A DNA stretch of 64,000 nucleotides from Thermoanaerobaculia bacterium (GTDB lineage Bacteria > Acidobacteriota > Thermoanaerobaculia > Gp7-AA8). The position numbers and the translations under genes were made by a program. The stretch lies in contig DATELQ010000037.1 of the NCBI GenBank assembly GCA_035276475.1, positions 2,482 to 66,481 of the forward strand, written 5' to 3'. The notes beneath the pieces are model-generated. The model had not been told where the DNA came from. It saw only the letters and a program-made list of their open reading frames with translations, and ran no database searches. This document shows positions 1,030 through 57,184 of the stretch, piece by piece (position 1 is the first letter of the stretch; the number at the start of each line of letters is the position of its first letter).

Positions 1030-1053
1030 CAAAAGACCCCTTTCCGTCACTCC

Positions 1054-5584: not shown

Positions 5585-6561
5585 CGGGTGGCCTCGAGGC
5601 GGATGCGCGGGTCGGCGAACGCGTAGAGGATGTCGGCGAAGAGCGAGGCGAAGAGGGTGATGACCGCCGTCGTCACCGTGAGGCCGAGGATCATCGGGTA
5701 GTCGCGCTGCGACATCGAGTCGAAGTAGAGCCGGCCGATGCCGTCCCACTGAAAGATCGTCTCGACGATGACGCTGCCGGAGATGAGGTACGGAATCGTC
5801 AAACCGAGGAGCGTGATCAGCGGGATCAGCGCATTGCGGAATGCGTGACGCCACATGACCGCCGCTGGCGCCGCCCCCTTCGCGCGCGCCGTGGTGATGA
5901 AGTCCTGGCGGATCACCTCAATGAGCGCCGACTTCGAGTAGCGCGCGAAGATGGCCATCTGCGCGTACGTCAGCGTGACGACCGGAAGGATGAGATGGCG
6001 CACGCGGTCGAGGAGCTGCTGCGCCGCGTTCATCTGCAGATAGTCGTCCGAGGTCATGCCGAAGAGCGGGAGGACATTGAGCTTCACGGAGAAGAACTGC
6101 ATCAGCAGCAGGGCCACCCAGAAGCTCGGCAGCGAATAGAGAAGGAAGAAGCCGACGGCGGAGGCGCGCTCGGACAGGCGCCCCGAGCGCGTCGCGCTCC
6201 AGAGGCCGATCGGCACGCCGAGCATCGCGGCGATGAGGAACGCGATGAGGTTCAGGACGAAGGTATTCGGCATCTTCTCGGCGATGTGGGCCATGACGGG
6301 CTGCTCGTCGATGATCGACTTGCCGAAGTCGAGGGTGACGACGCCCTTCACCCACCACGCGTACTGCGCGACGATGGGCTGGTCGAGGTGATGCTCGTGG
6401 CGGATGTGCTGGACGATTGCGGCGGGCGGCCGTCCCTTGGGGCTCAGGAACAACAAGGTCGGATCGCCGGGCACGGCGTGGATGAGGGCGAACACCGCGA
6501 CCGTGATGCCGAAGAAGGTCAGCACCCCGTAGGCGCAACGGCGGATCAGGTACGAGAGCAC
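5581..6561 (-). CDS. oligopeptide/dipeptide ABC transporter permease (DppB/OppB type)
   Basis: 326 aa; MLSYLIRRCAYGVLTFFGITVAVFALIHAVPGDP is the canonical OppB/DppB N-terminus. Confidence 0.85.
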   Translation of the reverse strand: MLSYLIRRCAYGVLTFFGITVAVFALIHAVPGDPTLLFLSPKGRPPAAIVQHIRHEHHLDQPIVAQYAWWVKGVVTLDFGKSIIDEQPVMAHIAEKMPNTFVLNLIAFLIAAMLGVPIGLWSATRSGRLSERASAVGFFLLYSLPSFWVALLLMQFFSVKLNVLPLFGMTSDDYLQMNAAQQLLDRVRHLILPVVTLTYAQMAIFARYSKSALIEVIRQDFITTARAKGAAPAAVMWRHAFRNALIPLITLLGLTIPYLISGSVIVETIFQWDGIGRLYFDSMSQRDYPMILGLTVTTAVITLFASLFADILYAFADPRIRLEATR

Positions 6562-6565
6562 TGCG

Positions 6566-8215: not shown

Positions 8216-8230
8216 GCCGCCATTATAGGC

Positions 8231-8301
8231 AGTGCTGAGTGCTGAGTGCCGAGTGCTGAGTTGGGAGGTACTCAGCACTCAGAACACAGCACTCAGCACT
8301 C
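8231..8301. repeat. perfect stem-loop made of heptamer tandem repeats (4 x AGTGCTG, loop, 4 x CAGCACT)
   Basis: agtgctgagtgctgagtgccgagtgctgag-ttgggaggt-actcagcactcagaacacagcactcagcact lying directly 3' of the propeller gene stop and 5' of the SBP gene start on the minus strand. Confidence 0.85.
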
Positions 8302-8303
8302 TT

Positions 8304-37997: not shown

Positions 37998-40763
37998 CTA
38001 CGCCGCCGCCTGCACCGCCGTCATCGTCTGCCGGTCGAGATCCGCGAGCAACGCGCCGGCGTCGGCGTAGCGGTCCTTGGGATTCTTGGCCAGGCAGCGC
38101 ATCACCATGGCGTCGACGGCGCGGCCGACGTCCGGGCGCACCTCGACGAGCGGCTTCGGCGTCTCGGTGATGTGCGCGGTCAGCACGCCCGTCAGCGATG
38201 ACGACGTGAACGGCTTCACCCCGCCGAGGATCTCGTAGAGCATCACCCCCATCGAGTAGACGTCGCTGCGCGCGTCGAGCTGCTGGCCCTGCACCTGCTC
38301 GGGGCTCATGTAGTGCGGCGTCCCCACGATTAGCCCCGCCTGGGTCATCCCTTCCTTCGCCTCGGCCATGCGCGCGATGCCGAAGTCCATCAGCTTCACT
38401 TCGCCCTTGTGGTCGATCAGCACGTTCTGCGGCTTGATGTCGCGGTGGATGATCCCCTGCTCGTGCGCGGCCTGCAGCCCGCGGCAGATCTGGCGCGACA
38501 GGCCCATGGCCGCGCGCGCGGCCATGCGGTGGTCGGGCGCCTCCTCGAGCAGCTCGGCGAGCGTGTAGCCGCGCACGTACTCCATGGAGATGAAGTAGAC
38601 GCCGTCAGCCTCGCCGTAGTCGTACGTGCGGAGCACGTTGCGGTGCGTGATCTTGCGCGCCAGGCGGATCTCGCGCTTGAAGCGCTCCAAATCCTCGGGG
38701 GACTTTTGCATCACGTCGCCGGGCAGCGTCTTGATCGCCACGGTCTCGTCGAGCTGCGTGTCGATGGCGCGGTAAACGACACCCATGCCGCCGCGCCCGA
38801 GGATCTGCTCGATGCGGTAGCGGTTCGCGAAGAACTGGCCTGCCGTCAACTCCGCGAGGGCGCCGGCGGGCGCGGTCTGCCCCGGCACGGTCGAATCGAC
38901 GCGCATCGTAGCCATCGAGCTCGTCGTCTGCCCGAGCGTGCGCATCATCGTCGAGCCGAGATTCGCCAGCGGCACCGCCGCGACGGGGAGCGGCTGCGGC
39001 AGCCACCGCAGCGCCACCTGCTCGTGCGTCGACGACGACAGGATCTCATTCCCCGCCGCCTGCGCCGTCTCGTACGAGATGTACGCGTAGCCGGTCGGCG
39101 CGTGCCATGCGAAGACTTCCGCGAGCAGCGGCGCGTTGCCGACGACCGCGAGACCGCTCTCCTGCTGTAGGTCGACCGAGCCGGTCACGAACTCGCCCGT
39201 GGCGATGCCGACGCCGATCTGCATCGTGTTGCCGTTGCCCTGCGCCACCAGCTCCTCGTTGATCGCGCGCGCGGCGCGGATGGCGTGGATGATGCCGCGC
39301 TCGCCGCGGAAGACGCTGACGAGGCGATGCCCTTTGATCTCGCGGACGACGCCGTCCTGGCGGTCCACTTCCGCTTCCTGCAGCTTCATGACGCGGGCGA
39401 CGTCGGCGATGACGTTGGCGGCGTCGCCGCCGCCGACCGTCGGCGGCAGTCCGCGCAGGTCGGTGACGAGCACCGTCCCCTCTTCGAGCTTGGCCGGCTC
39501 GCTCTTGCGGATGGCCTCGCGCTCCTCCGACCGCGCCGCCATCTGCTCGTACAGCTCCTCGAGCTCGGCCTTGTCGCGCAGCGACGTGATCATCTTCGCG
39601 AACGAACGCCCGAGGATGCCGACTTCGTCCTGGCGGTCGATGGCGGGGTGGACGTCGTAGTCGCCGTGCGTGACGGCTTGCGCGACGCCGGCCAGCTCTT
39701 CGATCGGCCGCGTGATGCGCTTGGCGATGAACCAGGAGAGGATGAAGGCGAGCAGCACCGCCACTCCGCCGCCGAGGAGGAGCGCCTTCTGGATCTCGCG
39801 GAACGGCGCGAGCTCGACGTCGAGCGAGCGGAGGAACACCGCGGCGCCGACGGTCTTGTTGCCCGAGGTCATCGGCTCGCCGGTCATGACGTACTGCGAG
39901 CGGTCGATCGTCACGGTTTTCGGCGGCATCTGCTTGCCGGTTCGGAAGATATCCTCGACGCCGGTCATCTGCTGCATGGTGAATTGAGGGGCGTTCTTGG
40001 AGCGGCCGGGCAAGCCGGCCTGCGAGACAAAGACCACGCCGGCGTTCGTCACGTTGGCAATCTTGTTGGCGAAGAGATCGTCGATGGCGACGCCGTTGAC
40101 GAAGTAGCCAATGCGCACGTTGTTCACGCCGAGGACCAGTGGCGCGACTGCGACGTGATAGAGATGATTGCCATCGGCCAGCACACCGGTGACCGCCGGA
40201 AGCGTGGCGTCGTCGACGATCTGCTTCACCAACGCCGATTCAGAGGCCATGTTCTCGTTCGGCGCTTGCGTCAGTGTCGGGCGATCGGTGCGCCCCATCA
40301 GATTGCCCTGCTCGTCGAGCAGCATCATCAGATCGGTACCGAGGGCTTCTTTTCGTTGCGTGAGCTGATCGGCGATGTCGAGATAGTTGATCGCAGGCGG
40401 CGCCGTCGGATTGGCCGGATCGGACGTCGGGTGAATGGCGTTCTGCAGGTAGGGGACGACGTTCGGATCATTCCCAAGCAGCCGCGTCGTGAGAGACAGC
40501 CGGGACAGCCGCTGTCTTTCGAATTCGCCGAACAACTGCGCCGCGCTCGAGATCGACTTATCCGCCGTCGCATGCGCGATCACCTGCGCGCGCTGCAGCG
40601 TCAGCCCCACCGCCACCGCCACGACGATGGCGATCAAGAGCGCGGTGAGAAAGAAAATCTTCCAGACCAGCGGGAACCGCGCCTTCTCCACCGCCATCTG
40701 CCGCGGCGTGACCGCGGGCATCGTTCCCGGCGTGACCGTGGTGTCGAGCGTCTGCGCGGTCAC
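37998..40763 (-). CDS. membrane sensor protein: TM / periplasmic domain / TM / HAMP / degenerate class-III cyclase-homology domain / C-terminal Ser/Thr protein kinase
   Basis: 921 aa; TM at about 35-57 and 335-357; HAMP (AKRITRPIEELAGVAQAVTHGDYDV); CHD-like block (GTVLVTDLRGL ... MQIGVGIATGEFVTGSVD ... AVVGNAPLLAEV) lacking the second metal Asp; kinase with GRGGMGVVY, AIK, HRDIKPQN, DFG, SPE. Confidence 0.8.
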   Translation of the reverse strand: MTAQTLDTTVTPGTMPAVTPRQMAVEKARFPLVWKIFFLTALLIAIVVAVAVGLTLQRAQVIAHATADKSISSAAQLFGEFERQRLSRLSLTTRLLGNDPNVVPYLQNAIHPTSDPANPTAPPAINYLDIADQLTQRKEALGTDLMMLLDEQGNLMGRTDRPTLTQAPNENMASESALVKQIVDDATLPAVTGVLADGNHLYHVAVAPLVLGVNNVRIGYFVNGVAIDDLFANKIANVTNAGVVFVSQAGLPGRSKNAPQFTMQQMTGVEDIFRTGKQMPPKTVTIDRSQYVMTGEPMTSGNKTVGAAVFLRSLDVELAPFREIQKALLLGGGVAVLLAFILSWFIAKRITRPIEELAGVAQAVTHGDYDVHPAIDRQDEVGILGRSFAKMITSLRDKAELEELYEQMAARSEEREAIRKSEPAKLEEGTVLVTDLRGLPPTVGGGDAANVIADVARVMKLQEAEVDRQDGVVREIKGHRLVSVFRGERGIIHAIRAARAINEELVAQGNGNTMQIGVGIATGEFVTGSVDLQQESGLAVVGNAPLLAEVFAWHAPTGYAYISYETAQAAGNEILSSSTHEQVALRWLPQPLPVAAVPLANLGSTMMRTLGQTTSSMATMRVDSTVPGQTAPAGALAELTAGQFFANRYRIEQILGRGGMGVVYRAIDTQLDETVAIKTLPGDVMQKSPEDLERFKREIRLARKITHRNVLRTYDYGEADGVYFISMEYVRGYTLAELLEEAPDHRMAARAAMGLSRQICRGLQAAHEQGIIHRDIKPQNVLIDHKGEVKLMDFGIARMAEAKEGMTQAGLIVGTPHYMSPEQVQGQQLDARSDVYSMGVMLYEILGGVKPFTSSSLTGVLTAHITETPKPLVEVRPDVGRAVDAMVMRCLAKNPKDRYADAGALLADLDRQTMTAVQAAA

Positions 40764-41426
40764 TCAGTAATCCCTCGGCGGCGCCGTGTAGGGCTTGCCG
40801 ACCTTGTTGAGGTGCGAGGCCGACTTGTAGTTGCTGCTGTCGAGCGTCAGGGCCACGTTCGTCGCGCCGGCGGCGCCGACGTCGACCATCGTCGCCGTCT
40901 GCCCCCCCTGCTCGTTCCAGGCGACGACCTTGTACTTCCCGGCCGGCACGTCGTGGATCGTGTAGTTGCCGGCGGCGTCGGCGAAGACGTAGTACGGCGT
41001 CGGCATCACCTGGATGACGGCGGACATGTTCGGGTGCACGTTGCAGTAGACGTTGACGACGCCGGGTGTCGTGAACTTCTGCGACTTGCCCGCGCCCTTG
41101 CGATAGAGCCCGAGGTCGAACGTGCTCGCCGAGGAGAGGGAGAAGAGGTTGTGCGAGATCGGATCGTCGTTCGGGAACTCCACCGTCGATCCGACCGGCA
41201 CCGCCAGCACGTGCGGGATCAGTGTCTTGCCACGCGTCGTCATCGTGACCTTCGCGGGCGGCTTCGGCGCGGGCTTTCCGGCGGCGGGCTCGAGCCAGAC
41301 CAGCGTCTCGGCCACGACCGGCGTTTGTCCCTTTTTCGTCACGAAGTTGACTTTGCCGCCGACCGTGGCGGCGGCGAGCGGCGCGGCGGCCGCGACGAGG
41401 CTCGCCAGAGCGAGAAGTCGTTTCAT
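40764..41426 (-). CDS. secreted cupredoxin-like protein with carboxypeptidase-regulatory-like (CarboxypepD_reg) domain
   Basis: Start at MKRLLALASLVAAAAPLAAA; His...Cys-x2-His-x2-Met arrangement (ISHNLF ... YCNVHPNMSAV) typical of type-1 copper sites; C-terminal YVFADAAGNYTIHDVPAGKYKVVAW. Confidence 0.55.
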   Translation of the reverse strand: MKRLLALASLVAAAAPLAAATVGGKVNFVTKKGQTPVVAETLVWLEPAAGKPAPKPPAKVTMTTRGKTLIPHVLAVPVGSTVEFPNDDPISHNLFSLSSASTFDLGLYRKGAGKSQKFTTPGVVNVYCNVHPNMSAVIQVMPTPYYVFADAAGNYTIHDVPAGKYKVVAWNEQGGQTATMVDVGAAGATNVALTLDSSNYKSASHLNKVGKPYTAPPRDY

Positions 41427-41516
41427 GTCAATTAGCTCCGGAGGTTCGACATGGTAGCACAAGGACTTGTGCGGAATTGATGTTGCTATTTGGCATGGAA
41501 AACGTATCATCTAAAA

Positions 41517-41957: not shown

Positions 41958-43136
41958 ATGACCACCGCCGCAGCAGAGCCCACCGCCTCTCCCCTGACCC
42001 TCCTCTCCGAAGAAGAACAGATGTTCCAGCAGAGCGTCCGCGACTTCGCGGTCGAGAAGATCCGTCCGCTCGTGCACCAGATGGATCACGACGCCAAGAT
42101 GTCGCGCGAGCTCATCGACAGCTTCTTCGACCTCGGCATCATGGGCATCGAGGTGCCGGACCAGTGGGGCGGCGCGGGCTCGTCGTTCTTCACCGCCGTC
42201 CTCGTCGTCGAGGAGCTCTCCCACGTCGACGCCTCCTGCGGCGTGCTCGTCGACGTGCAGAACACCCTCGTCAACAACGCCCTACTCCGCTGGGGCAACG
42301 AAGACCAGAAGTCGAAGTACCTCTCCATGCTGTCGAAGGACACGGTCGGCGCGTATGCGCTCTCCGAGGCGGGGTCGGGATCGGACGCGTTCGCGCTGGC
42401 GTGCCGCGCCGAGGACAAGGGCGACCATTGGGTTCTCAACGGCCAGAAGCTGTGGATCACGAACGCCTTCGAGGCCGGCGTCTTCATCGTCTTCGCCAAC
42501 GCCAATCCCGACGCCGGCTACAAAGGCATCACGGCGTTCCTGATCGAGCGCGACTTCCCCGGCTTCACCGTCGGGAAAAAAGAGGACAAGCTCGGCATCC
42601 GCGCCTCGTCGACGTGCGAGCTCATTCTCGAAGACTGCCGCGTCCCGAAAGAGAACGTCCTCGGCGAGCCGGGCAAGGGCTACAAGATCGCCATCGAGAC
42701 GCTCAACGAAGGGCGCATCGGCATCGGCGCGCAGATGATCGGCGTCGCGCGCGGCGCGCTCGAGCACGCCATCTCGTACGTGAAGGAGCGCAAGCAGTTC
42801 GGCACGCGCATCTCCGAGTTCCAGGGCGTGCAGTTCCAGATCGCCGAGGCGGCGACGGAGCTCGAGGCGGCCCGGCTCATGGTCTACAACGCCGCGCGGC
42901 TCAAGGACGCCAAGCAGCCGTTCCTCCGCGAGGCGGCCATGGCCAAGCTCTTCTCCTCGAACGCGTGCGAGAAGATCACTTCGCTGGCGGTGCAGCTCTT
43001 CGGCGGCAACGGCTACACGAAGGAGTACCCGGTCGAGAAGTACTGGCGCGACTCGAAGGTCGGACAGATCTACGAGGGGACGTCGAACATGCAGCTGGCC
43101 ACGATCGCCAAGACGATTCTGACCGACCGGCTGTAG
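41958..43136 (+). CDS. acyl-CoA dehydrogenase
   Basis: 392 aa from MTTAAAEPT; ACAD N/middle/C domains, catalytic-base region YEGTSNMQLATIAK. Confidence 0.9.
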   Translation: MTTAAAEPTASPLTLLSEEEQMFQQSVRDFAVEKIRPLVHQMDHDAKMSRELIDSFFDLGIMGIEVPDQWGGAGSSFFTAVLVVEELSHVDASCGVLVDVQNTLVNNALLRWGNEDQKSKYLSMLSKDTVGAYALSEAGSGSDAFALACRAEDKGDHWVLNGQKLWITNAFEAGVFIVFANANPDAGYKGITAFLIERDFPGFTVGKKEDKLGIRASSTCELILEDCRVPKENVLGEPGKGYKIAIETLNEGRIGIGAQMIGVARGALEHAISYVKERKQFGTRISEFQGVQFQIAEAATELEAARLMVYNAARLKDAKQPFLREAAMAKLFSSNACEKITSLAVQLFGGNGYTKEYPVEKYWRDSKVGQIYEGTSNMQLATIAKTILTDRL

Positions 43137-45161
43137 TCATTCGATGTAGCCGACGACGACCGTACCACGCGGAACTCTCGTTCCCGCTTTCGGTTCCTGA
43201 TGCCGCACGTAGGCCGAATGAGAGGGCTTCCCGCTGTATTGCGACAAGAAGCGAAGCCCGTATTTCTCGACCTCTGCTCTCGCCTGGTCTGCGCTCATCT
43301 TGAGGATGTACGGGACGACGACTTCGTCAGACAAATTGCGACCGGTCGACACATACACGGTGATGACCGATCCGCGCTTGACGAGCGTTCCTGGCGGCGG
43401 GTCCTGGCGCACGATGAGGCCGCGTGCGGCTCTGCTGTCGACGGATTCTGCACGCAACGTCAACCCCAGCCACGGGAGGTCGTCGGACGCCTGCATCCAT
43501 GTCTCTCCCCTGAGCTCGGGCACGATGACCGGCGGAGGTGGAGGCACGGGCGTAGGCGTGGGAGTAGGGGCAGATGACGACGACGATGGAGGTGGAGGTG
43601 GATGCGGCGGGCTCGGAACGAGCGGCGATGCGAGCTGCGCATATGCCTCCGAGTAGCTCTGTGCCAATTCGGAACGACCCAGTTTTGTCAGCGCTACGTC
43701 CGCGGCATGGAACGGAGCGGCGAAATCTGGATCGGATTGCGTGGCCCGCAGGAACGAAGCGAGTGCCTCCTCCCAATTTCCGCGGCGTGCGTGCAAGTAG
43801 CCCATGTAGAGGTGCGCGGGTGCGAACGAGGGGTCGCGCCGCAGGACGTCCTGGTATTGCGCGGTGGCGCGCTCGACGTCATTCGCCGCCTCGGCGACGC
43901 GCGCCAATCCGACGCGCGCGAACAGCGACTCCGGCTCGAATTTGAGGGCCAGGTTGAAATACCTCCGAGCCTCTTCGAGATTCGCGTTGGCGCGCAGCAG
44001 GGCCACCTCGCCGCGATGATAGGCAGGCTTGGCATGGTTCGGTTCGGCGCGGCCTTGGAGCGCCGGCTCGAGCACCTTGTCATACGCACTCTCGGCGCGT
44101 TCCAGGAGTTTTCGTGCCCCATCGGCGTCTCCTCGGCGATAGGCGGTCCCAGCTTCGTCAAGATAAAAATCTCCGGCGTCGTTGTTGGAAACGAATGCCG
44201 AGGGATTGATCTTGATAGCCCTCGCCAAGCGTTCCCCAGCTTTCGTGAAATCGCCCACCAGACGGTACGCCGTAGCGAGATTGTGATTGTAGACAGCGAC
44301 GTGACGCTCGTCGCCGGCGGAGGGCTCGCCACTTTTGACATAGGCCGCAATGGCCTTCGCCGGTTCCGCCCAATCGACATAGACATTGCCGAGGATTTCG
44401 AACTGCCCTTTGTCCTCAGGAGACCAGATCGTCCGGAAGCGCGCTTCACGATACGCGGCCGCGCGCTCTTTGTCGGAATCGAAGTTCGGAATCAACTGCA
44501 CGGACGGCCGCGCCGGCCGCATGGAGAGAATCACGTTCGCGTTGGCGTCGACGGCCTTGCGCACGCTCTCCTCGCCCGCAGGGCTGACCTCTGGTGACGC
44601 GCCGCCGGACGGAATCGTGAGACGGCGGAGAGGCGTCAGCCGGCGCCCGAGGCGTGCCTCCGGCGGCGCGACGGGCATGACCTCGAGCTCTCCTTCGAGT
44701 TGGAGAATCTCCGTTCCCGCCTCGGTCACTTCGACCTGGAATTCCGTTCCCTTTGCGGCAAGCGTCACGGTTTGCGTTCTTGCCTCGAAAAATCCCCGCA
44801 AGGTCGCAAACAACTTTCCAACGAGCAGGAAGATGGACTTCGAATTCGCCAGTTCGAACGAAGTGACGCCGTGAACCGTGATGTCTGCTTCCGACGCGCC
44901 GAGGGACATGACCAGAACCGAGGCGCCCAAAACCTGGATCCGGTCGCCGGCACAGAGCGGCATCCCCTTCCGAACCCTCGTCGACATCTGCCGGCGGATG
45001 ATCTTGATCTGCTCCTCGCCGGCGGACTGGGTGCTGACCGAGCCGATCGCGATGCCGGTGATTCGTCCGACCACCGGCGTATTGCACGACACTTCGTCCG
45101 GGGCGGCAAATCCGCTGGCTGCAATGGCCGACAATGCGACGACAGCCAGCGCCGTGCGCAT
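43137..45161 (-). CDS. secreted FecR-domain / TPR / proline-rich linker / tandem PASTA-domain protein
   Basis: 674 aa; signal peptide; FecR-like LAAKGTEFQVEV; TPR array; PPHPPPPPSSSSSAPTPTPTPVPPPPPV linker; two C-terminal PASTA-like modules. Confidence 0.7.
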   Translation of the reverse strand: MRTALAVVALSAIAASGFAAPDEVSCNTPVVGRITGIAIGSVSTQSAGEEQIKIIRRQMSTRVRKGMPLCAGDRIQVLGASVLVMSLGASEADITVHGVTSFELANSKSIFLLVGKLFATLRGFFEARTQTVTLAAKGTEFQVEVTEAGTEILQLEGELEVMPVAPPEARLGRRLTPLRRLTIPSGGASPEVSPAGEESVRKAVDANANVILSMRPARPSVQLIPNFDSDKERAAAYREARFRTIWSPEDKGQFEILGNVYVDWAEPAKAIAAYVKSGEPSAGDERHVAVYNHNLATAYRLVGDFTKAGERLARAIKINPSAFVSNNDAGDFYLDEAGTAYRRGDADGARKLLERAESAYDKVLEPALQGRAEPNHAKPAYHRGEVALLRANANLEEARRYFNLALKFEPESLFARVGLARVAEAANDVERATAQYQDVLRRDPSFAPAHLYMGYLHARRGNWEEALASFLRATQSDPDFAAPFHAADVALTKLGRSELAQSYSEAYAQLASPLVPSPPHPPPPPSSSSSAPTPTPTPVPPPPPVIVPELRGETWMQASDDLPWLGLTLRAESVDSRAARGLIVRQDPPPGTLVKRGSVITVYVSTGRNLSDEVVVPYILKMSADQARAEVEKYGLRFLSQYSGKPSHSAYVRHQEPKAGTRVPRGTVVVGYIE

Positions 45162-46610
45162 TTACGTCCCCTCGTTCTCCGAAGGTTTGGCGGACAAAGC
45201 CGGCGCGGCTCCGCAGTAGTAATACGACGCAATGACGGCGACTGCGCCGTATCCGACGTCGAAGAGCACCGAAGCGCTGCGGTAGAAGATCCAGACCACG
45301 ATCGCGTACAGCACGAGGAGCACGATCAGGCCCGCGGGGAGCTTGCGCTTTCCGGCGACCTTCGTGTCGACTTCGATGTCTGACTTCGGTAGTGACGATC
45401 GGCCAAAGCCGGCGATCGCGCCGAGGAGGAGCAGCACCGAAAGGTTGGCCCAGCCGGGCAGCGTTCGCGGATAGGTGTTGCGCGACAAGTCGCTGAAAAC
45501 GCTGGCGTGAAGCTGATAGCCGTATGCCTTGACCTGAGGCGTGATCTCGCAACGCTCCCTCTCGGTCTTTACGCCGATAAGCACGATCTGTCCCTTGTAC
45601 TCGTTTGCAAGACTGGACAGACGCTTGAGCTCTTTCACATATGAGTCGCCTTCGCCGAAACCGCGCCGGCCATAGCGAAGCGGCATGGTGGCGATGTTGT
45701 GACCGGTCTCGTCGGATTCGATCGTGCAGGAAATGCGGTCGATCTCCCGGTCGCCGGCATAGAGGATCAGACGTCGCGCTTTGGTGTCGAGCCTGACGGA
45801 CGGCCGCGCCTTCGACGATGGACTCTTCTCCAGAATTCGCATCATGACCGCGAGCGAGGCATACGCATCTTCCGGCGATACCGCGACGTTTGCGGGGAGC
45901 TTCGACCGCGCCAGCACGTATTTGCGGACGTACTCCGTGGAGGCGCCATGCTCGAGCCGCTTTCCACCGACGTGGACCCATCCCCAGGCGACGTCTTTGA
46001 ATGCATCGAGCAGGTCGGGGGTGTCATCGTTGCGCAGATCAGCTCCGAGCAGGATGCTCGTGGTCGCGCTCTGCACGGCTTTCACCATTTCGGCGTTGGC
46101 GCTCTGATACTCCGCGCCGTCGTTCGGCGAGGGAAACGTCAGATCGAACGCGACGAACTTCGGCGCATTCGCGAGCGCCTGAAGGAACAAGGCGTGCTGC
46201 CGCCGCCATAGTTGTTCCTCTTGAGCGAAATTGCCGCGGACGTTCTCGAGCGTGTCTTTCTCGTCGATATACAGCATGTGCAGCGACGGCGTGGATCGCG
46301 CCGCGACGCTGTATTCCATCTGTTCGAGCTGCAGACGCTCGAGCCAGTCGTCGATGCCGAGAAGGTTGAGCAGGTGAGTGAATGAGGCTAGGGAGACGGC
46401 GAGTACGACGAGAAAGAGTTTCCACACGAATCGCGCACGGCGATGATTCGTGACCAGCAGGAGCTTCCGCAGCGTATGACCTCCGGACGTATGCAGATCA
46501 TGATACGCGCGACCGGCCTCGAGGATGCGATCGGGACGTACTGGCGCGACCGGCTGTAATTTCGCTGAAACGCTAGCGGTCTTTCCGTCACTACATAACG
46601 GAATGACCAT
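45162..46610 (-). CDS. stand-alone CHASE2 sensor-domain membrane protein (no output domain)
   Basis: N-terminal TM, about 300-aa extracytoplasmic CHASE2-like region, 3 C-terminal TM; start uncertain (ATG at 46610 would overlap the divergent gene by 8 nt; a downstream GTG is possible). Confidence 0.65.
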   Translation of the reverse strand: MVIPLCSDGKTASVSAKLQPVAPVRPDRILEAGRAYHDLHTSGGHTLRKLLLVTNHRRARFVWKLFLVVLAVSLASFTHLLNLLGIDDWLERLQLEQMEYSVAARSTPSLHMLYIDEKDTLENVRGNFAQEEQLWRRQHALFLQALANAPKFVAFDLTFPSPNDGAEYQSANAEMVKAVQSATTSILLGADLRNDDTPDLLDAFKDVAWGWVHVGGKRLEHGASTEYVRKYVLARSKLPANVAVSPEDAYASLAVMMRILEKSPSSKARPSVRLDTKARRLILYAGDREIDRISCTIESDETGHNIATMPLRYGRRGFGEGDSYVKELKRLSSLANEYKGQIVLIGVKTERERCEITPQVKAYGYQLHASVFSDLSRNTYPRTLPGWANLSVLLLLGAIAGFGRSSLPKSDIEVDTKVAGKRKLPAGLIVLLVLYAIVVWIFYRSASVLFDVGYGAVAVIASYYYCGAAPALSAKPSENEGT

Positions 46611-47364
46611 CGTCCAGGCACCCGTCCAACGGGTATGCACCACCTGCGGCGCCACGCTCAGTCCGGGCGCGCGCAAGTGCTCGGAATGCACGTCGTATCA
46701 GGGCGAATGCGACGCCTGCGGGATGCCGATCCCCGAGAACGCCAAGCGCTGCTCCGGATGCAAGGCCTTCCAGGACGGGCATCCCTGCCGGTCGTGCGGA
46801 CTGACAATGCCGGCTTCCGCGAAGCGATGCCCGGAGTGCAAGGCGTTCCAGAACTGGCGGGCCTTCGTTCCGGACAATCAAGTCGTACTGGCTCTCCTCG
46901 TCTCGCTGATCTCGATCCTGAGCGCCGTCGTGCCGGCGGCCTACAAAGCGTGGAACAACCGCTCCGACGCGTACGTGCGCGTGATCGGCCACACCGTCGA
47001 CAACGACTCCAATCCCGTGTTGCTCGTTCTGGTGGCCAACAACGGAGGCCGTCCCGCTCTCGTCCGCGGCGCCGCCCTGGTCGGAAAAGGGCTGCCCATC
47101 GGCAGTACGCCGCTGACGATCCTCGATCCGACGCAGGAGCTCGTGCTGCCGTCGAAAGCGACGATGCTCCGCCTGACGACGCTGGATATCAACACGCCGG
47201 CCAAGCGCGACGCGCTCCTGGCGTTGCTGCCGAAGGGCGAGATCACCGTCAGCGTGGAGGTGGAAGAGACGGGACGGCTCGGCCGCCGTTTCACCCGTCA
47301 GCAGTCCGACGTTGCAAAGGGGGCCCAAATTGAGGAACTGGTGCAGAAGCGCGTTCTTCCTTAG
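46603..47364 (+). CDS. triple zinc-ribbon membrane protein of unknown function
   Basis: 253 aa from MTIVQAPVQRVCTTCGATL; three CxxC-N10/11-CxxC double-zinc-ribbon-like motifs, one TM, about 150-aa extracytoplasmic tail. Confidence 0.6.
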   Translation: MTIVQAPVQRVCTTCGATLSPGARKCSECTSYQGECDACGMPIPENAKRCSGCKAFQDGHPCRSCGLTMPASAKRCPECKAFQNWRAFVPDNQVVLALLVSLISILSAVVPAAYKAWNNRSDAYVRVIGHTVDNDSNPVLLVLVANNGGRPALVRGAALVGKGLPIGSTPLTILDPTQELVLPSKATMLRLTTLDINTPAKRDALLALLPKGEITVSVEVEETGRLGRRFTRQQSDVAKGAQIEELVQKRVLP

Positions 47365-48989: not shown

Positions 48990-49598
48990 ATGGACGCGAT
49001 GTCGACGCCCGAATCCGCTCTGGTCAGTCCGACCGAGTATCTCGAGATCGAACGGAATTCCGAGATCCGGCACGAGTACGTCAACGGACGGATGTACGAG
49101 ATGTCGGGCGCCAGCGACGCGCACTCTCTCATCGGTTGGAACCTGATCAGGGTACTTTCCAATCAGATAGGCGACCGTCCCTGTCGCGTGTACTACGGGG
49201 ACATGCGCGTGAAGGTCAGCCCTACGGGGATGTATACCTATCCCGACATCGCCGCGCTCTGCGACAAACCTCGACTCGAGAATTTCAAGGGCATCGACAC
49301 GCTGCTGAACCCGAGCGTGATCATCGAAGTGCTCTCCCACACGACCGAGTCGTACGACCGCGGCGACAAGTTCGAGCACTACCGCCGTCTGGAGTCGCTG
49401 CAGGAGTACGTTCTCGTGCCGCAGCACCGGATGCGCGTCGAGCAGTTCGTCCGCGACGGCGCCGACTGGCGGCTGTCGGAGCTCAGCGACCCACAGGCAT
49501 TGCTCCGCCTCGCGCCGATCGGCTGCGAGATCAGCCTCGCCGACATTTACCGAGGCGTCGAGTTCCCGAGCATCGAGAGCTCGCGCTGGCCCCGCTGA
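48990..49598 (+). CDS. Uma2-family (DUF820) putative endonuclease
   Basis: 202 aa; PTEYLEIERNSEIRHEYVNGRMYEMSGAS ... YPDIAALCD ... SVIIEVLSHTTESYDRGDKFEHYRRLESLQEYVLV matches Uma2 restriction-endonuclease-like fold family. Confidence 0.75.
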   Translation: MDAMSTPESALVSPTEYLEIERNSEIRHEYVNGRMYEMSGASDAHSLIGWNLIRVLSNQIGDRPCRVYYGDMRVKVSPTGMYTYPDIAALCDKPRLENFKGIDTLLNPSVIIEVLSHTTESYDRGDKFEHYRRLESLQEYVLVPQHRMRVEQFVRDGADWRLSELSDPQALLRLAPIGCEISLADIYRGVEFPSIESSRWPR

Positions 49599-50392: not shown

Positions 50393-50435
50393 TTGCGCGA
50401 TCGGTGATCGCCGGCGAACGGACCGCGATCGATGC

Positions 50436-50649
50436 CCTGCGTGTCCATGCTCCGAGACCGGCGAGCACTGCTCCACGGCCTGCGTGTCCGTGCTCCGAGG
50501 CCGGCGAGCACTGCTCCACGGCCCGCGTGTCCGTGCTCGCAGACCGGCGAGCATTGCTCCATGCCTCGCGCGTCCGTGCTCGCAGGCCGGCGAGCATTGC
50601 TCCATGCCTCGCGTGTCCGTGCTCGCAGGCCGGCGAGCATTGCTCCACG
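50436..50649. repeat. tandem array of five ~43-bp hairpin-containing units
   Basis: cctgcgtgtccgtgctcgcaggccggcgagcattgctccayg x5 (period 42-43, few SNPs); each unit carries the palindrome TGCTCGCAGGCCGGCGAGCA; between convergent genes. Confidence 0.9.
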
Positions 50650-50692
50650 CGGGGCGTGCACGCGCACGCACGGGAGCGATGCGTGATCGCCG

Positions 50693-51536: not shown

Positions 51537-51944
51537 ATGTCAACCACGAATGACGCCGAAGTCACGAAGTACACCGTCGTCGTGAACAGCGGTCAGGCCA
51601 CGCTCAAGGCATTGATGACGTTGAACGGCGGTGCCACGGTCGCGTTTTTGGCATTCATGGGGCACCTCTTGGAAAAAGGCGAGCCCGCTGCGAATCTCCA
51701 CGTGCTGCTGGGCGCGCTGCCGTATCTCATCGGCGGCACCTTCTGCGCGGTCCTGGGCTACGGCCTGATCTTCCTCACGGGCTGTTGCAGCTTGGCCCGA
51801 TGGCACACGGCGTCGAACGTCATGTTCGGCTCCGCAGTCTTCGTCTGCGTCGCGTCCATCGTCTTCTTTCTTTTGGCGAGCTTGCGCGCGGTGAGCGCGT
51901 TCGACTTCCTGACTCAGTCCCGCACCGCAATGTTGTATTTCTGA
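51537..51944 (+). CDS. hypothetical integral membrane protein
   Basis: 135 aa; AAAGGGGA SD 7 nt upstream; 4 predicted TM. Confidence 0.5.
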   Translation: MSTTNDAEVTKYTVVVNSGQATLKALMTLNGGATVAFLAFMGHLLEKGEPAANLHVLLGALPYLIGGTFCAVLGYGLIFLTGCCSLARWHTASNVMFGSAVFVCVASIVFFLLASLRAVSAFDFLTQSRTAMLYF

Positions 51945-54900
51945 ATCTTTGCCTTCAGCGTGTTCCGGGCCAGTCCGAGCCGCCGCGCCGCCTCGCGGAT
52001 GCGGCCGCCCGACGACTCCAGCGCGCGCTCGATGAGCTGGCGGTCGACCGACGACATCACCTCGTCGTAGATGTCGCTGGTGATGTCCATCTTCCCGATC
52101 ACGGGATTGAGCAGCGAGCTCGGCATCGGCACGGGGCCGGCGTCGGGCGAGGGCGGGACGATGTCGGTGAAGAGCCCGTAGAAGTCGTTGCGCGTGATCG
52201 TCTCGCCGTTCGACATCACGATGGCGCGGTGCAGCGTCGCCTCGAGCTCGCGGATGTTGCCGGGCCAGTTGTAGCGCAGGAAAAGATCGAGCACGCCCGG
52301 CTCGAGATGCTTCGTCTCGATGCCGAGGTCACGGCAGATCTTGCGCATGAAATGCTCGGTCAGGACCGGGATGTCGTCCTTGCGCTCGCGCAGCGGCGGG
52401 AGGATCAGCGGGATGATGTTGAGGCGGTAGTAGAGATCCTCGCGGAACGTCCCCTGATCGATGGCCTTCTCGATGTCGAGGTTCGTCGCGGCGATGATCT
52501 TCACCTCGGTTTTGATCGTCTGCGTGCCGCCGACGCGCTCGAACTCCTTGTCCTCGACCACGCGCAGCAGCTTGGCCTGGATCGCCAGGCTCACCTTCCC
52601 GATCTCGTCGAGGAAAATCGTCCCGCCGTTGGCGAGCTCGAAGCGGCCGAGCTTGCGGCGGTCGGCGCCGGTGAACGAGCCCTTCTCGTGGCCGAACAGC
52701 TCCGATTCGGCCAGCGTCTCCGGCAGCGCCGCGCAGTTGAACTTGATGAACGGACCGTTCCGGCGCGGCGAGACGTTGTGGATGATGCGCGCCACGAGGC
52801 CCTTGCCCGAGCCCGACTCGCCGCGCAGCAGCACCGTGGAGTTCCCGCTGGCGGCCTTGCGGATGGAGAACTGGATCTTCGCCACCGCCTCCGACTGCCC
52901 GACGATCGAGTCGAGGTGCTTCTCGATCAGCACCTCGCGGCGCAGCGACTCATTCTCAAGCGATAGCCGCGTGCGCGCCTCCTCGAGCTCCTCGTACAGC
53001 CGCGCGTTCTCGATGGCGATCGCCGCCTGATCGGAGAACGCTTCGAGGAAGTTCAGATCCTTCTGCGAGAAGAGGTGCCGGGCCTGGCGATGGTCGACGT
53101 AGATCGCGCCGGCGATGCGGTCCTTGATGATGAGCGGCACGCAGAGGATCGAGAGGATGTTCTCCGTGATCACCGACTCCGACTCCACGAAGCGCTCGTC
53201 CGCGCGCGCGTCGGCCGACATCACCGACTGCCCGCTCTGGATCACCTCGCGCACGATCGACTGCGGCGAGCGCTTCGAGTCGGACTCCCCCTCGTTGATG
53301 TTGCGCACCACGCGCGTGCGCAAGGCGCTCGTGATCGGATCGAGCAGCAGGATCATGCCGCGCTCCGCGCGCAAACGCCGGATCGCGAGGTCGAGCACGC
53401 GCGACAGCACTTCCTGCAGGTCGAGCGAGGAGTTGATGATCTTGACGACTTCGTAGAGCCCGACGACCGCGCTCGGCACCTGCACCTTGCCGCCCGGGCG
53501 GATGCGGAACAGCGCGCCGCGGGCGCGCTCGAGGTCGTGCGGGGCGTCGAGGCGCTCGAAGATGCGAATCGCGCCGCGGATCGTCTGCGTGGCCTCCTCG
53601 GCGTCGTCCTTCAACAGTCCGATGTCGAACAGCAGCCGCCCGAGCTCGTACGGCGTCTCCAGCTCCTCGAACGTCACGCGCGCCGCTTCGAAGCGGACGT
53701 TGGCGGCTTCGCGGTCGCCGTTGGCGTAGAGGATCTTCCCCCACATCCAATCGTTCTTGGCCTTGCTGAAGCGGTCGCCGAGCTGGTCGGCGTACTGTGC
53801 GCCGAGCTCCGCGTGCTGCATGGCGTCGTCGAGCTTCTGCTGCGAGAAGCAGAGGCTGGCCTTGGCCGTGTGCGCGCGGGCCAGGCCGTTCGTCGTCTGC
53901 TTGTCCTCGAAAATCTTCAGCGCGCGGCCGAGGTAGCGGTCGGCGTCGACGTAGTTCTCGCGCTCGTCCTCGATCGCCGCAAGCACGTAGCAGGCCTCGG
54001 CGATGCTGTCCTCTTCGCGGGCGCGCTCGGCCGCCGAGAGCGCCTTCTGCACGTACTCGAGGGCTTTGGCGATGTCGCCCTTCTTGTTCATCAGGCGCGC
54101 CAGCGGGATGTAGACCGACGAGCGCGACGCACGCGACTCGTCGAAGCCGCGCATGTTGATGCAGCGCGTGTACTGCTCGAGCGCATCGGCCCAGCGCCCG
54201 AGCATCTCCAGCGCCTCGCCGGCGTTCTCGCGCGCCAGGGCCTCGTACTCGATCGCGCCGATCTTCTCGTCGATGCGCACGGTCTTGTCGAAGTATTCGA
54301 GCGCGGAGTGGAAGTTGCCGCGCCCGAACTCGATGATGCCGACGTTGTTGTAGGCGGTGATGAGGTCCCACAGGTCGCCCTCGGACTCGGAAAGCTCGAG
54401 GTTCAACTTGTAGTACTGCAGCGCGCTCGTCCAATCGCCGGTCTTCCAGAGCGTGTTGCCGAGGTTCGTCGACGCCACCTTGGAGAGTTGCTCGGAGCCG
54501 ACTTTCGATCCCACTTCCACGGCCTGCAGCAAGAGCTCCTTCGAAGCCTGCCAGTTGCCGAGCGAGTACTCGATCGAGCCGAGCGTGTTCTTGATGTAGC
54601 CGTAGACGATGTTCGGCTCTTTGCCTTCGAGCAGCGCCTCCGCGCGCTCCGACGTCTCCCGCGCCGTGGCGTAGTCGCCCATGTCCTTATACAGCCAGGC
54701 CATGCGGTTGAGGAGCTCGGCCAGCTCGATCGTCTCGCCGAGGCGCTCGTAAATCTCGCGGGCGTTGTTGTAGTACGAGAGCGCTGAGTCCTGCTCGCCG
54801 CGCTTCGTCAGCACCTTGCCGATCTTCTTCATCACCCGGGCGAGGTCGGCGTTCGCCTCGTGGTCCTTCGCGCGGGTCTGGATGCTCTTCAGAAGGTACT

Positions 54901-57184
54901 GGTACGCCTGCATGGCGCCGCGGAAATCGTTGCTGCGGTAGTAGGCGTCGGCGAGCTTCTCGCGCACCTCGGCCTTGTGCGCCTCGTCGTGGCCGGCCAG
55001 GTCCATCAGGTCGAGCGCGCTGCGGTAGAACTCCGTCGCCTCCTCGTGCGCGAGCGTGCGGAAGGCGAGGTCGCCCGCCTCGACGGCGTAGCCGATCCCC
55101 TTCTCCGGCTCGTCGGCGCGCGCGAAGTGATACGCGACCTGGCCGAGGAGCTGCGTCAATCCGCCGGCAAGCAGCGGCTCGAGCACGTGGCCGACGCGGT
55201 GATGCAGCTCGCTGCGCCGGCGGTCGTGCATGGAGTTGTAGAGCGCGTCGCGCAGGTGGATCTGCGGGAAAGAGACGCTCTTGCCGTCCGAGGCTTCGTC
55301 GAGGAGACCGTCGCGGATCAGGTCGCGCAGGATGAGATACGCCTTCTCGGCCGACGCGTCCGCTGCCTGCGTCAGGAGATCGACCTCCGACACTTCCCCG
55401 AACACCGCCGCCGTCTCCAACAGCGCGCGCTGCTCGTCGGTGAGGTCGTCGACCTTCTCCATCAGGATCGACGCCGCGCCGCCGGGGATGCGCAGCGCGC
55501 GGATGCGGTCCATCTCCACCATCCAGCCGTTCGCCGTCCAGCAGAGGAAGTCGTGGGCGATGAGGTAGTCGACGATGCGGCGGATGTTCAGCGGCGAGCC
55601 GGTCGACTCCCACAACATCCAGCGCACGAATTCGTCGGAGACGTTCTCGTACCCGAGGAGCGATTGCAGGTGCTCGCGGACGAGTGCCTCGTTCAGCGTG
55701 GAGACGCGGATGAGCGGGAAGCTCCCCTCGCGGGCGCGTTGCTCCCACGCCACGAGCTCCGCCGAGCCGTCGTCCGCGGTCAGCGTGCCGATGACGAGAA
55801 GGCGGTTCTGCTTCGCCTCGCCGACGAGGAACGAGAAGAGCTCGCTCGTCGACGGATCGGCCCACTGCAGGTCTTCGATGAGGATGATGAGCGGCGAGCC
55901 GCTCCCCTCGCCGGCAGAGAGGAACCCGTACATGTCCTGCATCGATTGCACGATGCGGTTGTAGAGGCGGTATTTCTGGCTGTGCGCCGGCGTCGTCTCT
56001 TCGCCCTGCGGCGGCACGAGCGGCCGCAGCAACCGCCGCAGCTCCTCGGTGACGTCGGCGCTCGGGTTCACCGCCGCGACCATCTGCTGGAAGATCTCGA
56101 AGAACGGCGCGTAGATCGTCTTGCGGTTGATCGGGCAGCGGCCGCAGAAGACGCGCGCGCCGTCGAGCTGCGCGCGCAGCGTGGCGTCGCGCACGATGCG
56201 GCTCTTCCCCATCCCCTCGGGGCCCGCAACGATGACGCCGCAGCCGCGGCCGTCGCGCGCGTCGCCGATCATCGTGGCGAGCTGGTTGATCTCGTGCTTG
56301 CGCCCGATCAGCGGCGCGGCAAAGAGCTCGCCGCGGCCGACGAGAAGCTCGCCCGCCGGCGCGGTCTTGCCCGCCGCTTGCGCGACCGCTTGCAGCAGCG
56401 CGGCGGCGGAGACGAAGCGGTGCCGCGGGTCCTTCTCGAGCAGCTTCATGATGATCTGCTCGAGCGCGTCGGGCACGCGTGGGTTGATCGACGACGGCGG
56501 ACGGATCTCGCCGTCGAGGTGGAGGCGGATGACTTCGATCTGCTGTTTGCCGTACGCCGGCAGCGCCCCGGTGACGGTCTCGTACAGCGTCATGCCGAGG
56601 GCGTAGAGGTCGGCGCGGGAGTCGACGCGGTCCTGGCGCAGCACCTCGGGCGCCATGTAGTGCAGCGTGCCGCGGATCTGCCGGTCGAGGACCTGATGGC
56701 TTTCGACGGCGACGCCGAAGTCCATGATCTTGGCCTGCCCATGGTCGCTGACGAGGATGTTCGAGGGCTTGAGGTCGAGGTGGATGATGCCGAGGTGGTG
56801 GATGTGGTGCAGCCCCGAGGCGATCTGCAGGATCACGTCGTAGAGCGCGTCCCAGTTCTGGCCGTCGAAGAACTCGGAGATCTTCCGGCCGGCGAAGTAC
56901 TCCATGGTGAAGTACGGGAAACCGTCGTCGAGCAGGCCGAAGTCGAAGACCTTGACGATCGACGGGTGCTCGAGGCCGGCCAGCGTCGCGAACTCTGCCT
57001 TGAACCGTAGGAGTTGCTGCGGCTCGGAGAGCTCGTGGCGGAGGATTTTGATGGTCTCGTCGCGCTTGTCGGAGACGTCGAAGACCCGATAGACGGCGAC
57101 GGCGGGGGTTTCTTTCAGGACCGTCCGGATTTGGAACCGCGGCGGCAGCTGAAGTTCGGGCGCGAGTGTCTCGGCTGTGGTCAT
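51914..57184 (-). CDS. giant multidomain regulator: Ser/Thr kinase / P-loop (STAND/AAA) NTPase / TPR array / GAF / sigma-54 activator AAA+ domain / Fis-type HTH
   Basis: 1756-aa uninterrupted ORF; kinase (IKIL Lys, HLDLKPSN, DFG, APE; no Gly loop); P-loop GPEGMGKSR; long TPR; GAF; sigma54 domain (GESGSGKG, GSFTGA, DEIG); C-terminal HTH RIREAARRLGLARNTLKAKIQKY. Confidence 0.85.
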   Translation of the reverse strand: MTTAETLAPELQLPPRFQIRTVLKETPAVAVYRVFDVSDKRDETIKILRHELSEPQQLLRFKAEFATLAGLEHPSIVKVFDFGLLDDGFPYFTMEYFAGRKISEFFDGQNWDALYDVILQIASGLHHIHHLGIIHLDLKPSNILVSDHGQAKIMDFGVAVESHQVLDRQIRGTLHYMAPEVLRQDRVDSRADLYALGMTLYETVTGALPAYGKQQIEVIRLHLDGEIRPPSSINPRVPDALEQIIMKLLEKDPRHRFVSAAALLQAVAQAAGKTAPAGELLVGRGELFAAPLIGRKHEINQLATMIGDARDGRGCGVIVAGPEGMGKSRIVRDATLRAQLDGARVFCGRCPINRKTIYAPFFEIFQQMVAAVNPSADVTEELRRLLRPLVPPQGEETTPAHSQKYRLYNRIVQSMQDMYGFLSAGEGSGSPLIILIEDLQWADPSTSELFSFLVGEAKQNRLLVIGTLTADDGSAELVAWEQRAREGSFPLIRVSTLNEALVREHLQSLLGYENVSDEFVRWMLWESTGSPLNIRRIVDYLIAHDFLCWTANGWMVEMDRIRALRIPGGAASILMEKVDDLTDEQRALLETAAVFGEVSEVDLLTQAADASAEKAYLILRDLIRDGLLDEASDGKSVSFPQIHLRDALYNSMHDRRRSELHHRVGHVLEPLLAGGLTQLLGQVAYHFARADEPEKGIGYAVEAGDLAFRTLAHEEATEFYRSALDLMDLAGHDEAHKAEVREKLADAYYRSNDFRGAMQAYQYLLKSIQTRAKDHEANADLARVMKKIGKVLTKRGEQDSALSYYNNAREIYERLGETIELAELLNRMAWLYKDMGDYATARETSERAEALLEGKEPNIVYGYIKNTLGSIEYSLGNWQASKELLLQAVEVGSKVGSEQLSKVASTNLGNTLWKTGDWTSALQYYKLNLELSESEGDLWDLITAYNNVGIIEFGRGNFHSALEYFDKTVRIDEKIGAIEYEALARENAGEALEMLGRWADALEQYTRCINMRGFDESRASRSSVYIPLARLMNKKGDIAKALEYVQKALSAAERAREEDSIAEACYVLAAIEDERENYVDADRYLGRALKIFEDKQTTNGLARAHTAKASLCFSQQKLDDAMQHAELGAQYADQLGDRFSKAKNDWMWGKILYANGDREAANVRFEAARVTFEELETPYELGRLLFDIGLLKDDAEEATQTIRGAIRIFERLDAPHDLERARGALFRIRPGGKVQVPSAVVGLYEVVKIINSSLDLQEVLSRVLDLAIRRLRAERGMILLLDPITSALRTRVVRNINEGESDSKRSPQSIVREVIQSGQSVMSADARADERFVESESVITENILSILCVPLIIKDRIAGAIYVDHRQARHLFSQKDLNFLEAFSDQAAIAIENARLYEELEEARTRLSLENESLRREVLIEKHLDSIVGQSEAVAKIQFSIRKAASGNSTVLLRGESGSGKGLVARIIHNVSPRRNGPFIKFNCAALPETLAESELFGHEKGSFTGADRRKLGRFELANGGTIFLDEIGKVSLAIQAKLLRVVEDKEFERVGGTQTIKTEVKIIAATNLDIEKAIDQGTFREDLYYRLNIIPLILPPLRERKDDIPVLTEHFMRKICRDLGIETKHLEPGVLDLFLRYNWPGNIRELEATLHRAIVMSNGETITRNDFYGLFTDIVPPSPDAGPVPMPSSLLNPVIGKMDITSDIYDEVMSSVDRQLIERALESSGGRIREAARRLGLARNTLKAKIQKYNIAVRD

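Follow-up and report, generated by a model that had tools for sequence, protein, structure and literature searches.

What does a membrane-bound CHASE2 protein without an output domain do beside a secreted protein assembled from FecR-like, TPR and PASTA parts? This question is raised by two adjoining genes in a 64,000-nucleotide stretch of DNA, the whole of which is called the window here, from a soil bacterium of the Thermoanaerobaculia (assembly GCA_035276475.1, contig DATELQ010000037.1). A preliminary description of this DNA read the two genes as a periplasmic pair that senses cell-wall fragments. The best explanation found in this study, and one that we consider probable, is that they encode an envelope-sensing complex from a modular CHASE2-FecR family. 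The two genes are:

45162..46610 or 45162..46427, minus strand: gene B, a stand-alone CHASE2 membrane protein of 482 amino acids (ATG at 46610) or 421 amino acids (GTG at 46427), identified by Pfam CHASE2
43137..45161, minus strand: gene A, a secreted FecR-TPR-PASTA2 protein of 674 amino acids, whose ATG adjoins the gene B stop

The two open reading frames (ORFs) run head to tail, and the TAA of gene B (45162-45164) directly abuts the ATG of gene A at 45161. A locus search with the gene A family, covering one genome per GTDB species, returned 12 true loci, all of them in Acidobacteriota metagenome-assembled genomes (MAGs) from Thermoanaerobaculia, Terriglobia, Blastocatellia and Pyrinomonadaceae, and a CHASE2 gene lay directly upstream on the same strand in all 12. 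Further pair loci came from contigs reached via individual proteins and from a metagenome scan, and the CHASE2-FecR synteny was present in every related locus fetched (L001-L015, L017, L019-L020 and L023-L027). The two genes often overlap by 1-17 nucleotides in these loci, and the pair was found only in Acidobacteriota MAGs or in metagenome contigs without an assigned taxon. The two proteins also occur joined into one: P0140 (1409 amino acids, on 5 contigs) is a TIR-CHASE2-FecR-TPR-PASTA3 fusion, P0072 is CHASE2-FecR-TPR and P0128 is TIR-CHASE2-FecR. By hydropathy, all three keep the former signal peptide as an extra transmembrane (TM) helix after TM4, so the FecR part would stay periplasmic in the fusions. 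Homologues of both genes in Thermoanaerobaculia and Terriglobia share 44-70% identity, and many of their residues are invariant. Taken together, the strict synteny and the gene fusions argue strongly for a direct physical contact between CHASE2 and the FecR-fold domain, a contact that we infer from these two observations. The pairing part of the preliminary description, that genes A and B are a genuine functional pair, is thus supported by the synteny in all fetched loci and by Rosetta-stone fusions.

In one Thermoanaerobaculia genome (OY970380.1, 5.9 Mb) the partner protein is split across frames, at 7283-8161 and 7968-10895 of L001 (the same region as L007). Its first ~110 family-profile positions, which comprise the signal peptide and the FecR-like start, lie in a different frame from the rest, and for this reason the protein P0008 appears without an N-terminus; the split is due to a frameshift or else to an error of assembly. 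A homologue search with the N-terminal alignment gave 2 proteins and the metagenome scan gave 3 loci, which made both unusable for counting partner architectures. A scan of 42900-47000 for promoter and terminator consensus sequences found nothing, such consensus sequences being uninformative for Acidobacteriota.

The membrane protein of the pair consists of the following parts:

46359..46430, minus strand: TM1 of gene B, residues 61-84 in the 482-residue numbering, with a short cytoplasmic tail before it (hydropathy; AlphaFold helices 2-41 of the 421-residue form)
45456..46358, minus strand: periplasmic CHASE2 domain of gene B (Pfam match to profile positions 16-254 of 257; AlphaFold alpha/beta core with a predicted local distance difference test score, pLDDT, of 80-90)
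45204..45452, minus strand: C-terminal three-helix membrane bundle of gene B, made up of TM2, a cytoplasmic loop beginning LPKSDIEVDTK, TM3 and TM4 (hydropathy, AlphaFold and alignment)

Pfam scored CHASE2 (PF05226) in gene B at 45.6 bits, compared with a gathering score of 26.3, and found no other domain in it. The hydropathy profile and the AlphaFold model both place one TM helix before CHASE2 and three after it. Only 13 residues lie between TM4 and the stop, the next gene begins immediately and orthologues end at the same place. Gene B has none of the classical CHASE2 outputs (histidine kinase, cyclase, GGDEF/EAL or Ser/Thr kinase) behind its third C-terminal TM helix. These features bear out the earlier reading of gene B as a TM-CHASE2-3TM protein without cytoplasmic output.

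The start of gene B is ambiguous. The preliminary description assumed the ATG at 46610, and public gene calls use the GTG at 46427 (P0039). Similarity to homologues continues for ~20 residues upstream of the GTG (RKLL..RRARF versus MRKFL..PRARF), and no canonical start codon lies between the GTG and the upstream limit of this similarity, which makes the 482-residue form plausible. Its 61 extra residues divide into ~20 that are conserved and a first ~40 that are not. On the plus strand, a divergent gene at 46525-47364 encodes a protein with one TM helix, several zinc-ribbon motifs (Pfam Zn_Ribbon_1 and DZR) and a C-terminal domain without assignment. The 5' end of the gene overlaps the longest reading of gene B, which leaves both start codons uncertain; this gene is not kept beside the pair in other loci.

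An exhaustive profile search with the stand-alone CHASE2 alignment against 1.84 billion cluster representatives retrieved 275 proteins at E <=1e-3, and because only this many representatives matched, the gene B clade is, as judged by this search, a small and divergent CHASE2 clade. Near-full-length members were sorted by the length of their N-terminal extension. The first class (~420-520 amino acids, n=47) contains CHASE2 only, the second (~550-680 amino acids, n=16) has a medium extension, which for most members checked with Pfam is a TIR or SEFIR domain, and the third (~820-930 amino acids, n=29) has a long extension that is CHAT in those checked. CHAT-CHASE2 proteins are found in L010 and L012-L015 and TIR-CHASE2 proteins in L009 and L011. 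The CHAT-head consensus retains FIGHG and LNSCxGA and the TIR-head consensus retains a conserved Glu, so that, on motif conservation, the heads of the effector-bearing relatives look functional. With the PADLOC bSEFIR model, the N-terminus of P0126 scores 176 bits, and those of other relatives match TIR_2 and ThsB_TIR. In these matches the relatives resemble bSEFIR/TIR anti-phage effectors, but the known systems are cytoplasmic and have no periplasmic sensor. The CHAT-CHASE2 proteins likewise resemble the metacaspase-CHASE2 protein of Trichodesmium (PMC3501461, PMC2853523) and EACC2-caspase-CHASE2 (PMC8195603), in which a cytoplasmic caspase-fold protease is combined with TM-CHASE2-3TM; however, no FecR or PASTA partner is mentioned in those papers, and gene B carries no protease. 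When the PADLOC-DB 2.0 system models were run against the window pair, gene B had no match, and the sole match of gene A was to the PD-T4-6 kinase model, in its PASTA part.

The preliminary description had left open whether gene B is truncated relative to homologues with kinase or cyclase outputs. The comparison gave a different picture, in that the nearest relatives carry an N-terminal TIR, SEFIR or CHAT head or nothing at all, and not a kinase or cyclase. These heads would move the family away from classical signal transduction and towards cell-death or immunity-type systems. The window pair has the arrangement common to the family, a CHASE2 protein of this clade directly upstream of a protein that starts with a FecR-like domain, and it belongs to the effector-less forms, which account for roughly half of the clade. 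A neighbour-joining tree calculated from the CHASE2 region contains at least 19 changes of N-terminal class and places gene B inside a large block of such head-less forms. The cytoplasmic EVDTK loop was considered as a docking site specific to effector-less forms and was dropped, as it is invariant among close orthologues only.

Several of the related loci have gene neighbourhoods of their own. The P0140 fusion lies in a same-strand run (L021, 1-12148) that encodes TIR, CHAT, SLATT, a 593-residue protein without assignment, the fusion itself, an Exo_endo_phos nuclease and a second TIR; this setting is a typical conflict island. In L023, a SEFIR-CHASE2 and FecR-M16 pair (6001-10244) has a further SEFIR/TIR gene and a phage-type integrase in its vicinity. 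In L026 an effector-less CHASE2 and FecR-TPR-PASTA pair is preceded, at a distance of 1.9 kb and on the same strand, by a gene for a separate 856-residue CHAT protein (88-2658, plus strand, 168 bits), and two ORFs without a Pfam match lie between the CHAT gene and the pair.

Since sister clades bear effectors and the N-terminal class changes often on the tree, the window pair could be read as the decaying and now functionless remnant of a TIR- or CHAT-bearing system that lost its effector. The preliminary description had also considered that gene B might be a fragment of a disrupted longer gene. All 10 close homologues of gene B are 421-472 amino acids long, contain CHASE2 only and share its C-terminal end. 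Stop-to-stop ORFs in most of the effector-less loci (the window, L001/L007, L002, L004-L006 and L008) leave room for fewer than ~100 extra N-terminal residues and for none at the C-terminus, and in L003, where the called gene has 486 amino acids, there is room for up to ~147. At most 61-87 residues precede TM1 in gene B, and they match no effector profile. Profiles of the CHAT and TIR heads of relatives matched none of the six-frame ORFs of the 64-kb window, so the pair has neither an effector head of its own nor a CHAT-like or TIR-like ORF, or a relic of one, in the window. Both genes are under purifying selection, with pairwise ratios of non-synonymous to synonymous divergence (dN/dS) among the effector-less loci of 0.18-0.46, values that are rough because dS is near saturation for the deeper pairs. 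The homologue lengths, ORF limits, missing head relic and dN/dS values together rule out that gene B is a frameshifted or truncated longer gene. Decay of the pair as a whole was already disfavoured and is highly improbable, given that both genes are intact, are conserved with many invariant residues over the identity range given above, have low dN/dS (about 0.2-0.3) and belong to a form as common as the effector-less one.

CHASE2 genes beside FecR genes are a documented pattern (PMC5192318, PMC9239204), as the preliminary description had said. The 'BiofilmReg' operon of Burkholderia contaminans encodes a response regulator, a LysM-FecR periplasmic protein and a CHASE2 histidine kinase (PMC5192318). 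It resembles the window pair in having a CHASE2 membrane protein beside a secreted FecR protein with a peptidoglycan-binding module. However, that module is LysM and not PASTA, there is no TPR, and the CHASE2 protein has a C-terminal PAS-HisKA-HATPase output with a cognate regulator, whereas the window has neither the output nor a regulator gene. A cluster in Campylobacterota encodes a CHASE2 adenylate cyclase, a phosphodiesterase, a FecR-domain protein and a TPR protein (PMC9239204), and so unites CHASE2, FecR and TPR in one locus. In that cluster FecR and TPR are found on different proteins and cyclic AMP is the output, whereas in the window FecR, TPR and PASTA are fused and there is no cyclase or phosphodiesterase. 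The window pair is a variation on the CHASE2 and FecR theme in which the FecR, TPR and wall-binding parts are combined in one secreted protein and CHASE2 has no output.

These precedents, with their histidine kinases and adenylate cyclases (PMC5192318, PMC9239204), are also the starting point for a different explanation, in which the output-less CHASE2 and its FecR partner are an accessory sensor that acts through intramembrane contact on a kinase, cyclase or CHASE2 receptor encoded at an unlinked site; the genome's many Ser/Thr kinases would be candidates. In the window, genes for Ser/Thr kinases are found within ~5 kb of the pair (37998-40763 and 51914-57184), as they are in L001 and L002, and the distant relative P0164 is a CHASE2-Pkinase protein. 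However, P0164 is the only one of the 150 best relatives with a classical C-terminal output, no kinase or cyclase gene is conserved beside the pair across the loci compared, and kinase genes are so abundant in these genomes that proximity means little. We therefore regard signalling through such a partner as unlikely.

The neighbours themselves can be described briefly. The gene at 37998-40763 (minus strand) encodes a 921-residue membrane Ser/Thr kinase with dCache_3, HAMP, ~250 residues without assignment and a C-terminal Pkinase domain. It is abutted upstream, at 40763/40764, by a gene for a 248-residue secreted protein (40764-41510, minus strand) with weak CarboxypepD_reg and plastocyanin-like matches. 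The gene at 51914-57184 (minus strand) encodes a 1756-residue protein with Pkinase, AAA_16, TPR, GAF, sigma-54 activator and HTH_8 domains, and a 1766-residue counterpart with a similar domain list is encoded in L002, a few kb upstream of the pair as in the window. A Uma2-family putative restriction endonuclease gene (114 bits) is found at 48990-49598 on the plus strand. At 50434-50650 there is a GC-rich tandem repeat with a 43-bp unit in 5 copies (91% matches), which shows up as repetitive peptide-like strings in a number of spurious ORFs that overlap one another.

What the pair could sense depends on the secreted partner. The product of gene A is identical to a public entry annotated solely as 'PASTA domain-containing protein [Thermoanaerobaculia bacterium]', and it is built as follows:

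45105..45161, minus strand: signal peptide, residues 1-19, ending in GFA with A following (lone N-terminal hydrophobic segment; aligns with homologue N-termini)
44577..45086, minus strand: FecR-fold beta domain, residues ~26-195
43632..44459, minus strand: TPR region, residues ~235-510 (TPR_2 at 53.9 bits and TPR_1 at 45.6 bits; also TPR_14, TPR_16, TPR_19 and others)
43527..43625, minus strand: Pro/Ser/Thr-rich linker, residues 513-545 (composition and family alignment)
43341..43526, minus strand: PASTA domain 1, residues 546-607 (best Pfam PASTA stretch 545-606; Mycobacterium tuberculosis PknB PASTA, 2kui, E 5e-13)
43140..43322, minus strand: PASTA domain 2, residues 614-674 (second Pfam PASTA stretch; boundaries from the family alignment)

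The signal peptide, TPRs and Pro/Ser/Thr linker named in the preliminary description were all recovered at these positions. The N-terminus contains a single hydrophobic segment and no lipobox. Many Pfam TPR models exceed their cut-offs over residues ~290-510, and the linker consists exclusively of Pro, Ser, Thr, Val, His and Ala and occupies the position of an extra PASTA domain in most homologues.

The Pfam FecR model (PF04773) matched gene A below threshold, at residues 110-159 with 14.9-17.9 bits compared with a gathering score of 24, and because of this weak match further tests were made. Among the N-terminal regions of the family, 9 of 10 match Pfam FecR at E <=1 (best E 1.4e-7), and P0072 exceeds the gathering score with 27.6 bits. 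A sequence search of the PDB with the N-terminal profile gave only spurious weak matches (AVR-Pia, E 0.06) and no FecR entry, and a fold search was used instead; in it the fold of the N-terminal domain agreed with that of the periplasmic domain of FecR/PupR-type anti-sigma factors. The N-terminal domain of gene A is a FecR-like fold, and the FecR-like beta region proposed earlier stands on the family and fold matches even though gene A itself scores below the Pfam gathering score. Within this domain Cys26 and Cys70 are nearly invariant (at least 90% of family sequences), as is a GTEF motif (44745-44750) in which G138, T139 and E140 are invariant and F141 is kept in at least 90% of sequences. 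In the FecR-type domain of FoxR, a Gly-Thr pair (G191/T192) is the site of a non-enzymatic self-cleavage that proceeds by an N-O acyl shift (PMC11637429). By analogy gene A may cleave itself at G138-T139, a hypothesis in which the correspondence to FoxR G191/T192 is only presumed. The anti-sigma factors FecR, PupR and FoxR (PDB 6ovm, 4m0h; PMC11637429) differ from gene A in having a cytoplasmic anti-sigma domain and a TM anchor, whereas gene A has only a cleavable signal peptide. No extracytoplasmic-function (ECF) sigma factor or TonB-dependent transducer gene was found among the examined neighbours of the pair. With no cytoplasmic domain, membrane anchor or such neighbours, gene A as a FecR-type anti-sigma factor was ruled out.

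The two PASTA modules of the preliminary description were confirmed by profile: Pfam PASTA (PF03793) matched gene A in two stretches with 73.6 bits (E 1.2e-20), compared with a gathering score of 23.2, and the region aligns best to PASTA domains of M. tuberculosis PknB with solved structures (E 5e-13). In its tandem extracytoplasmic PASTA domains gene A thus resembles the PknB/PrkC kinases (PMC3145798, PMC6428115). However, profile searches found no Ser/Thr kinase or transpeptidase domain in the gene A polypeptide, so it is not a PASTA kinase (PknB/Stk1) or a class B penicillin-binding protein (PBP); the NCBIfam PknB_PASTA_kin model reached 47 bits with a cut-off of 450, and that match was confined to the PASTA region. 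Its PASTA domains are instead attached to FecR and TPR parts and, in a diderm acidobacterium, would be periplasmic. PknB PASTA domains bind muropeptides and lipid II (PMC3145798, PMC6428115). Because the PASTA domains of gene A resemble those of PknB and because the Burkholderia LysM-FecR protein is an analogue, sensing of peptidoglycan or wall fragments by the window pair is plausible.

Across the family, the FecR-like head of the partner protein is constant and the C-terminal tail varies. The window protein has two PASTA copies, P0140 and most close homologues have three, the L009 partner has five, and P0008 and P0015 seem to have more still. The partner in L019 has TPR and an Ig-like domain instead of PASTA, and the partner in L023, paired with SEFIR-CHASE2, has an M16 peptidase module. 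This variation bears on the possibility that the pair is structural, with CHASE2 anchoring a peptidoglycan-binding FecR-TPR-PASTA protein as a link or scaffold between inner membrane and wall and with no signalling output. A spacer or avidity module would be expected to vary in copy number as PASTA does (two to at least five), the TPR region is a typical scaffold, gene B has no output domain, and both genes are under purifying selection. However, PASTA is exchanged for modules that do not bind the wall, and the repeated joining of the core to TIR, SEFIR and CHAT effectors suggests that it transmits information. A purely structural role is accordingly improbable in our assessment.

The envelope-sensing complex that we favour would work as follows. 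Genes A and B would form a translationally coupled operon. Gene B would be an inner-membrane protein whose CHASE2 domain faces the periplasm, and gene A, after export, would dock on that domain through its FecR-fold domain. The TPR region and two PASTA domains of gene A would reach towards the peptidoglycan and might sense either a wall-derived ligand or the condition of the wall itself. In the effector-bearing relatives, the periplasmic event would be relayed via TM1 and switch on the NAD-degrading (TIR/SEFIR) or proteolytic (CHAT) effector. The window copy would keep the sensor, and because it has no enzymatic head, its output would have to come from a partner in trans, from modulation of effector-bearing paralogues or from non-enzymatic tethering. 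Most likely, the window pair is a sensor whose output is supplied in trans.

A number of points weigh against this explanation. No conserved third gene that could supply the output was found beside the effector-less pairs across the loci examined, and just one of the effector-less loci examined (L026) has a separate CHAT gene upstream. The window pair is surrounded by housekeeping genes (rpoD, acyl-CoA dehydrogenase) and not by a defence island. Because family members can have an Ig-like domain or an M16 peptidase in place of PASTA, PASTA is one of several interchangeable reader modules, and peptidoglycan is probably not the signal of the family as a whole. Lastly, some metagenome representatives classed as stand-alone may be N-terminally cut gene calls, and the CHASE2 tree is a neighbour-joining tree without support values.

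A broader reading of the family can be proposed tentatively, and we would sooner doubt than accept it. In it, the CHASE2-FecR core would carry out trans-envelope surveillance in Acidobacteriota: a periplasmic PASTA, Ig-like or M16 reader would report damage to the wall or periplasm, the signal would run via CHASE2 and TM1, a cytoplasmic TIR/SEFIR NADase or CHAT protease would respond with abortive infection or programmed cell death triggered from the envelope, and the effector-less form would be a sensor-only regulator or decoy for effector-bearing paralogues. If this is true, the source of the damage could be phage lysins, predators or antibiotics, for instance.

Literature searches, within the library that could be searched, on CHASE2 with PASTA, FecR with CHAT, and CHASE2 with TIR (with a FecR partner) found no description of this family. 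A constant CHASE2-FecR core that takes interchangeable death or immune heads on one side and interchangeable periplasmic readers on the other appears not to have been described before. As a sensor domain CHASE2 is widespread, and to our knowledge it has no identified ligand or solved structure. The fusions and strict synteny argue that a FecR-fold protein is the direct periplasmic partner of CHASE2, which would give a concrete and testable model for the input of CHASE2 receptors. The family also places PASTA in a diderm periplasm, outside kinases and PBPs, and the clade that naturally has no effector could be used to study sensing apart from killing. TIR, SEFIR and CHAT effectors are usually studied as cytoplasmic immune enzymes, and in this family they would be wired to periplasmic sensing modules. 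The interest of the locus rests less on the effector-less copy itself than on what the family suggests about the partners of CHASE2 and about TIR and CHAT systems that may sense the periplasm.

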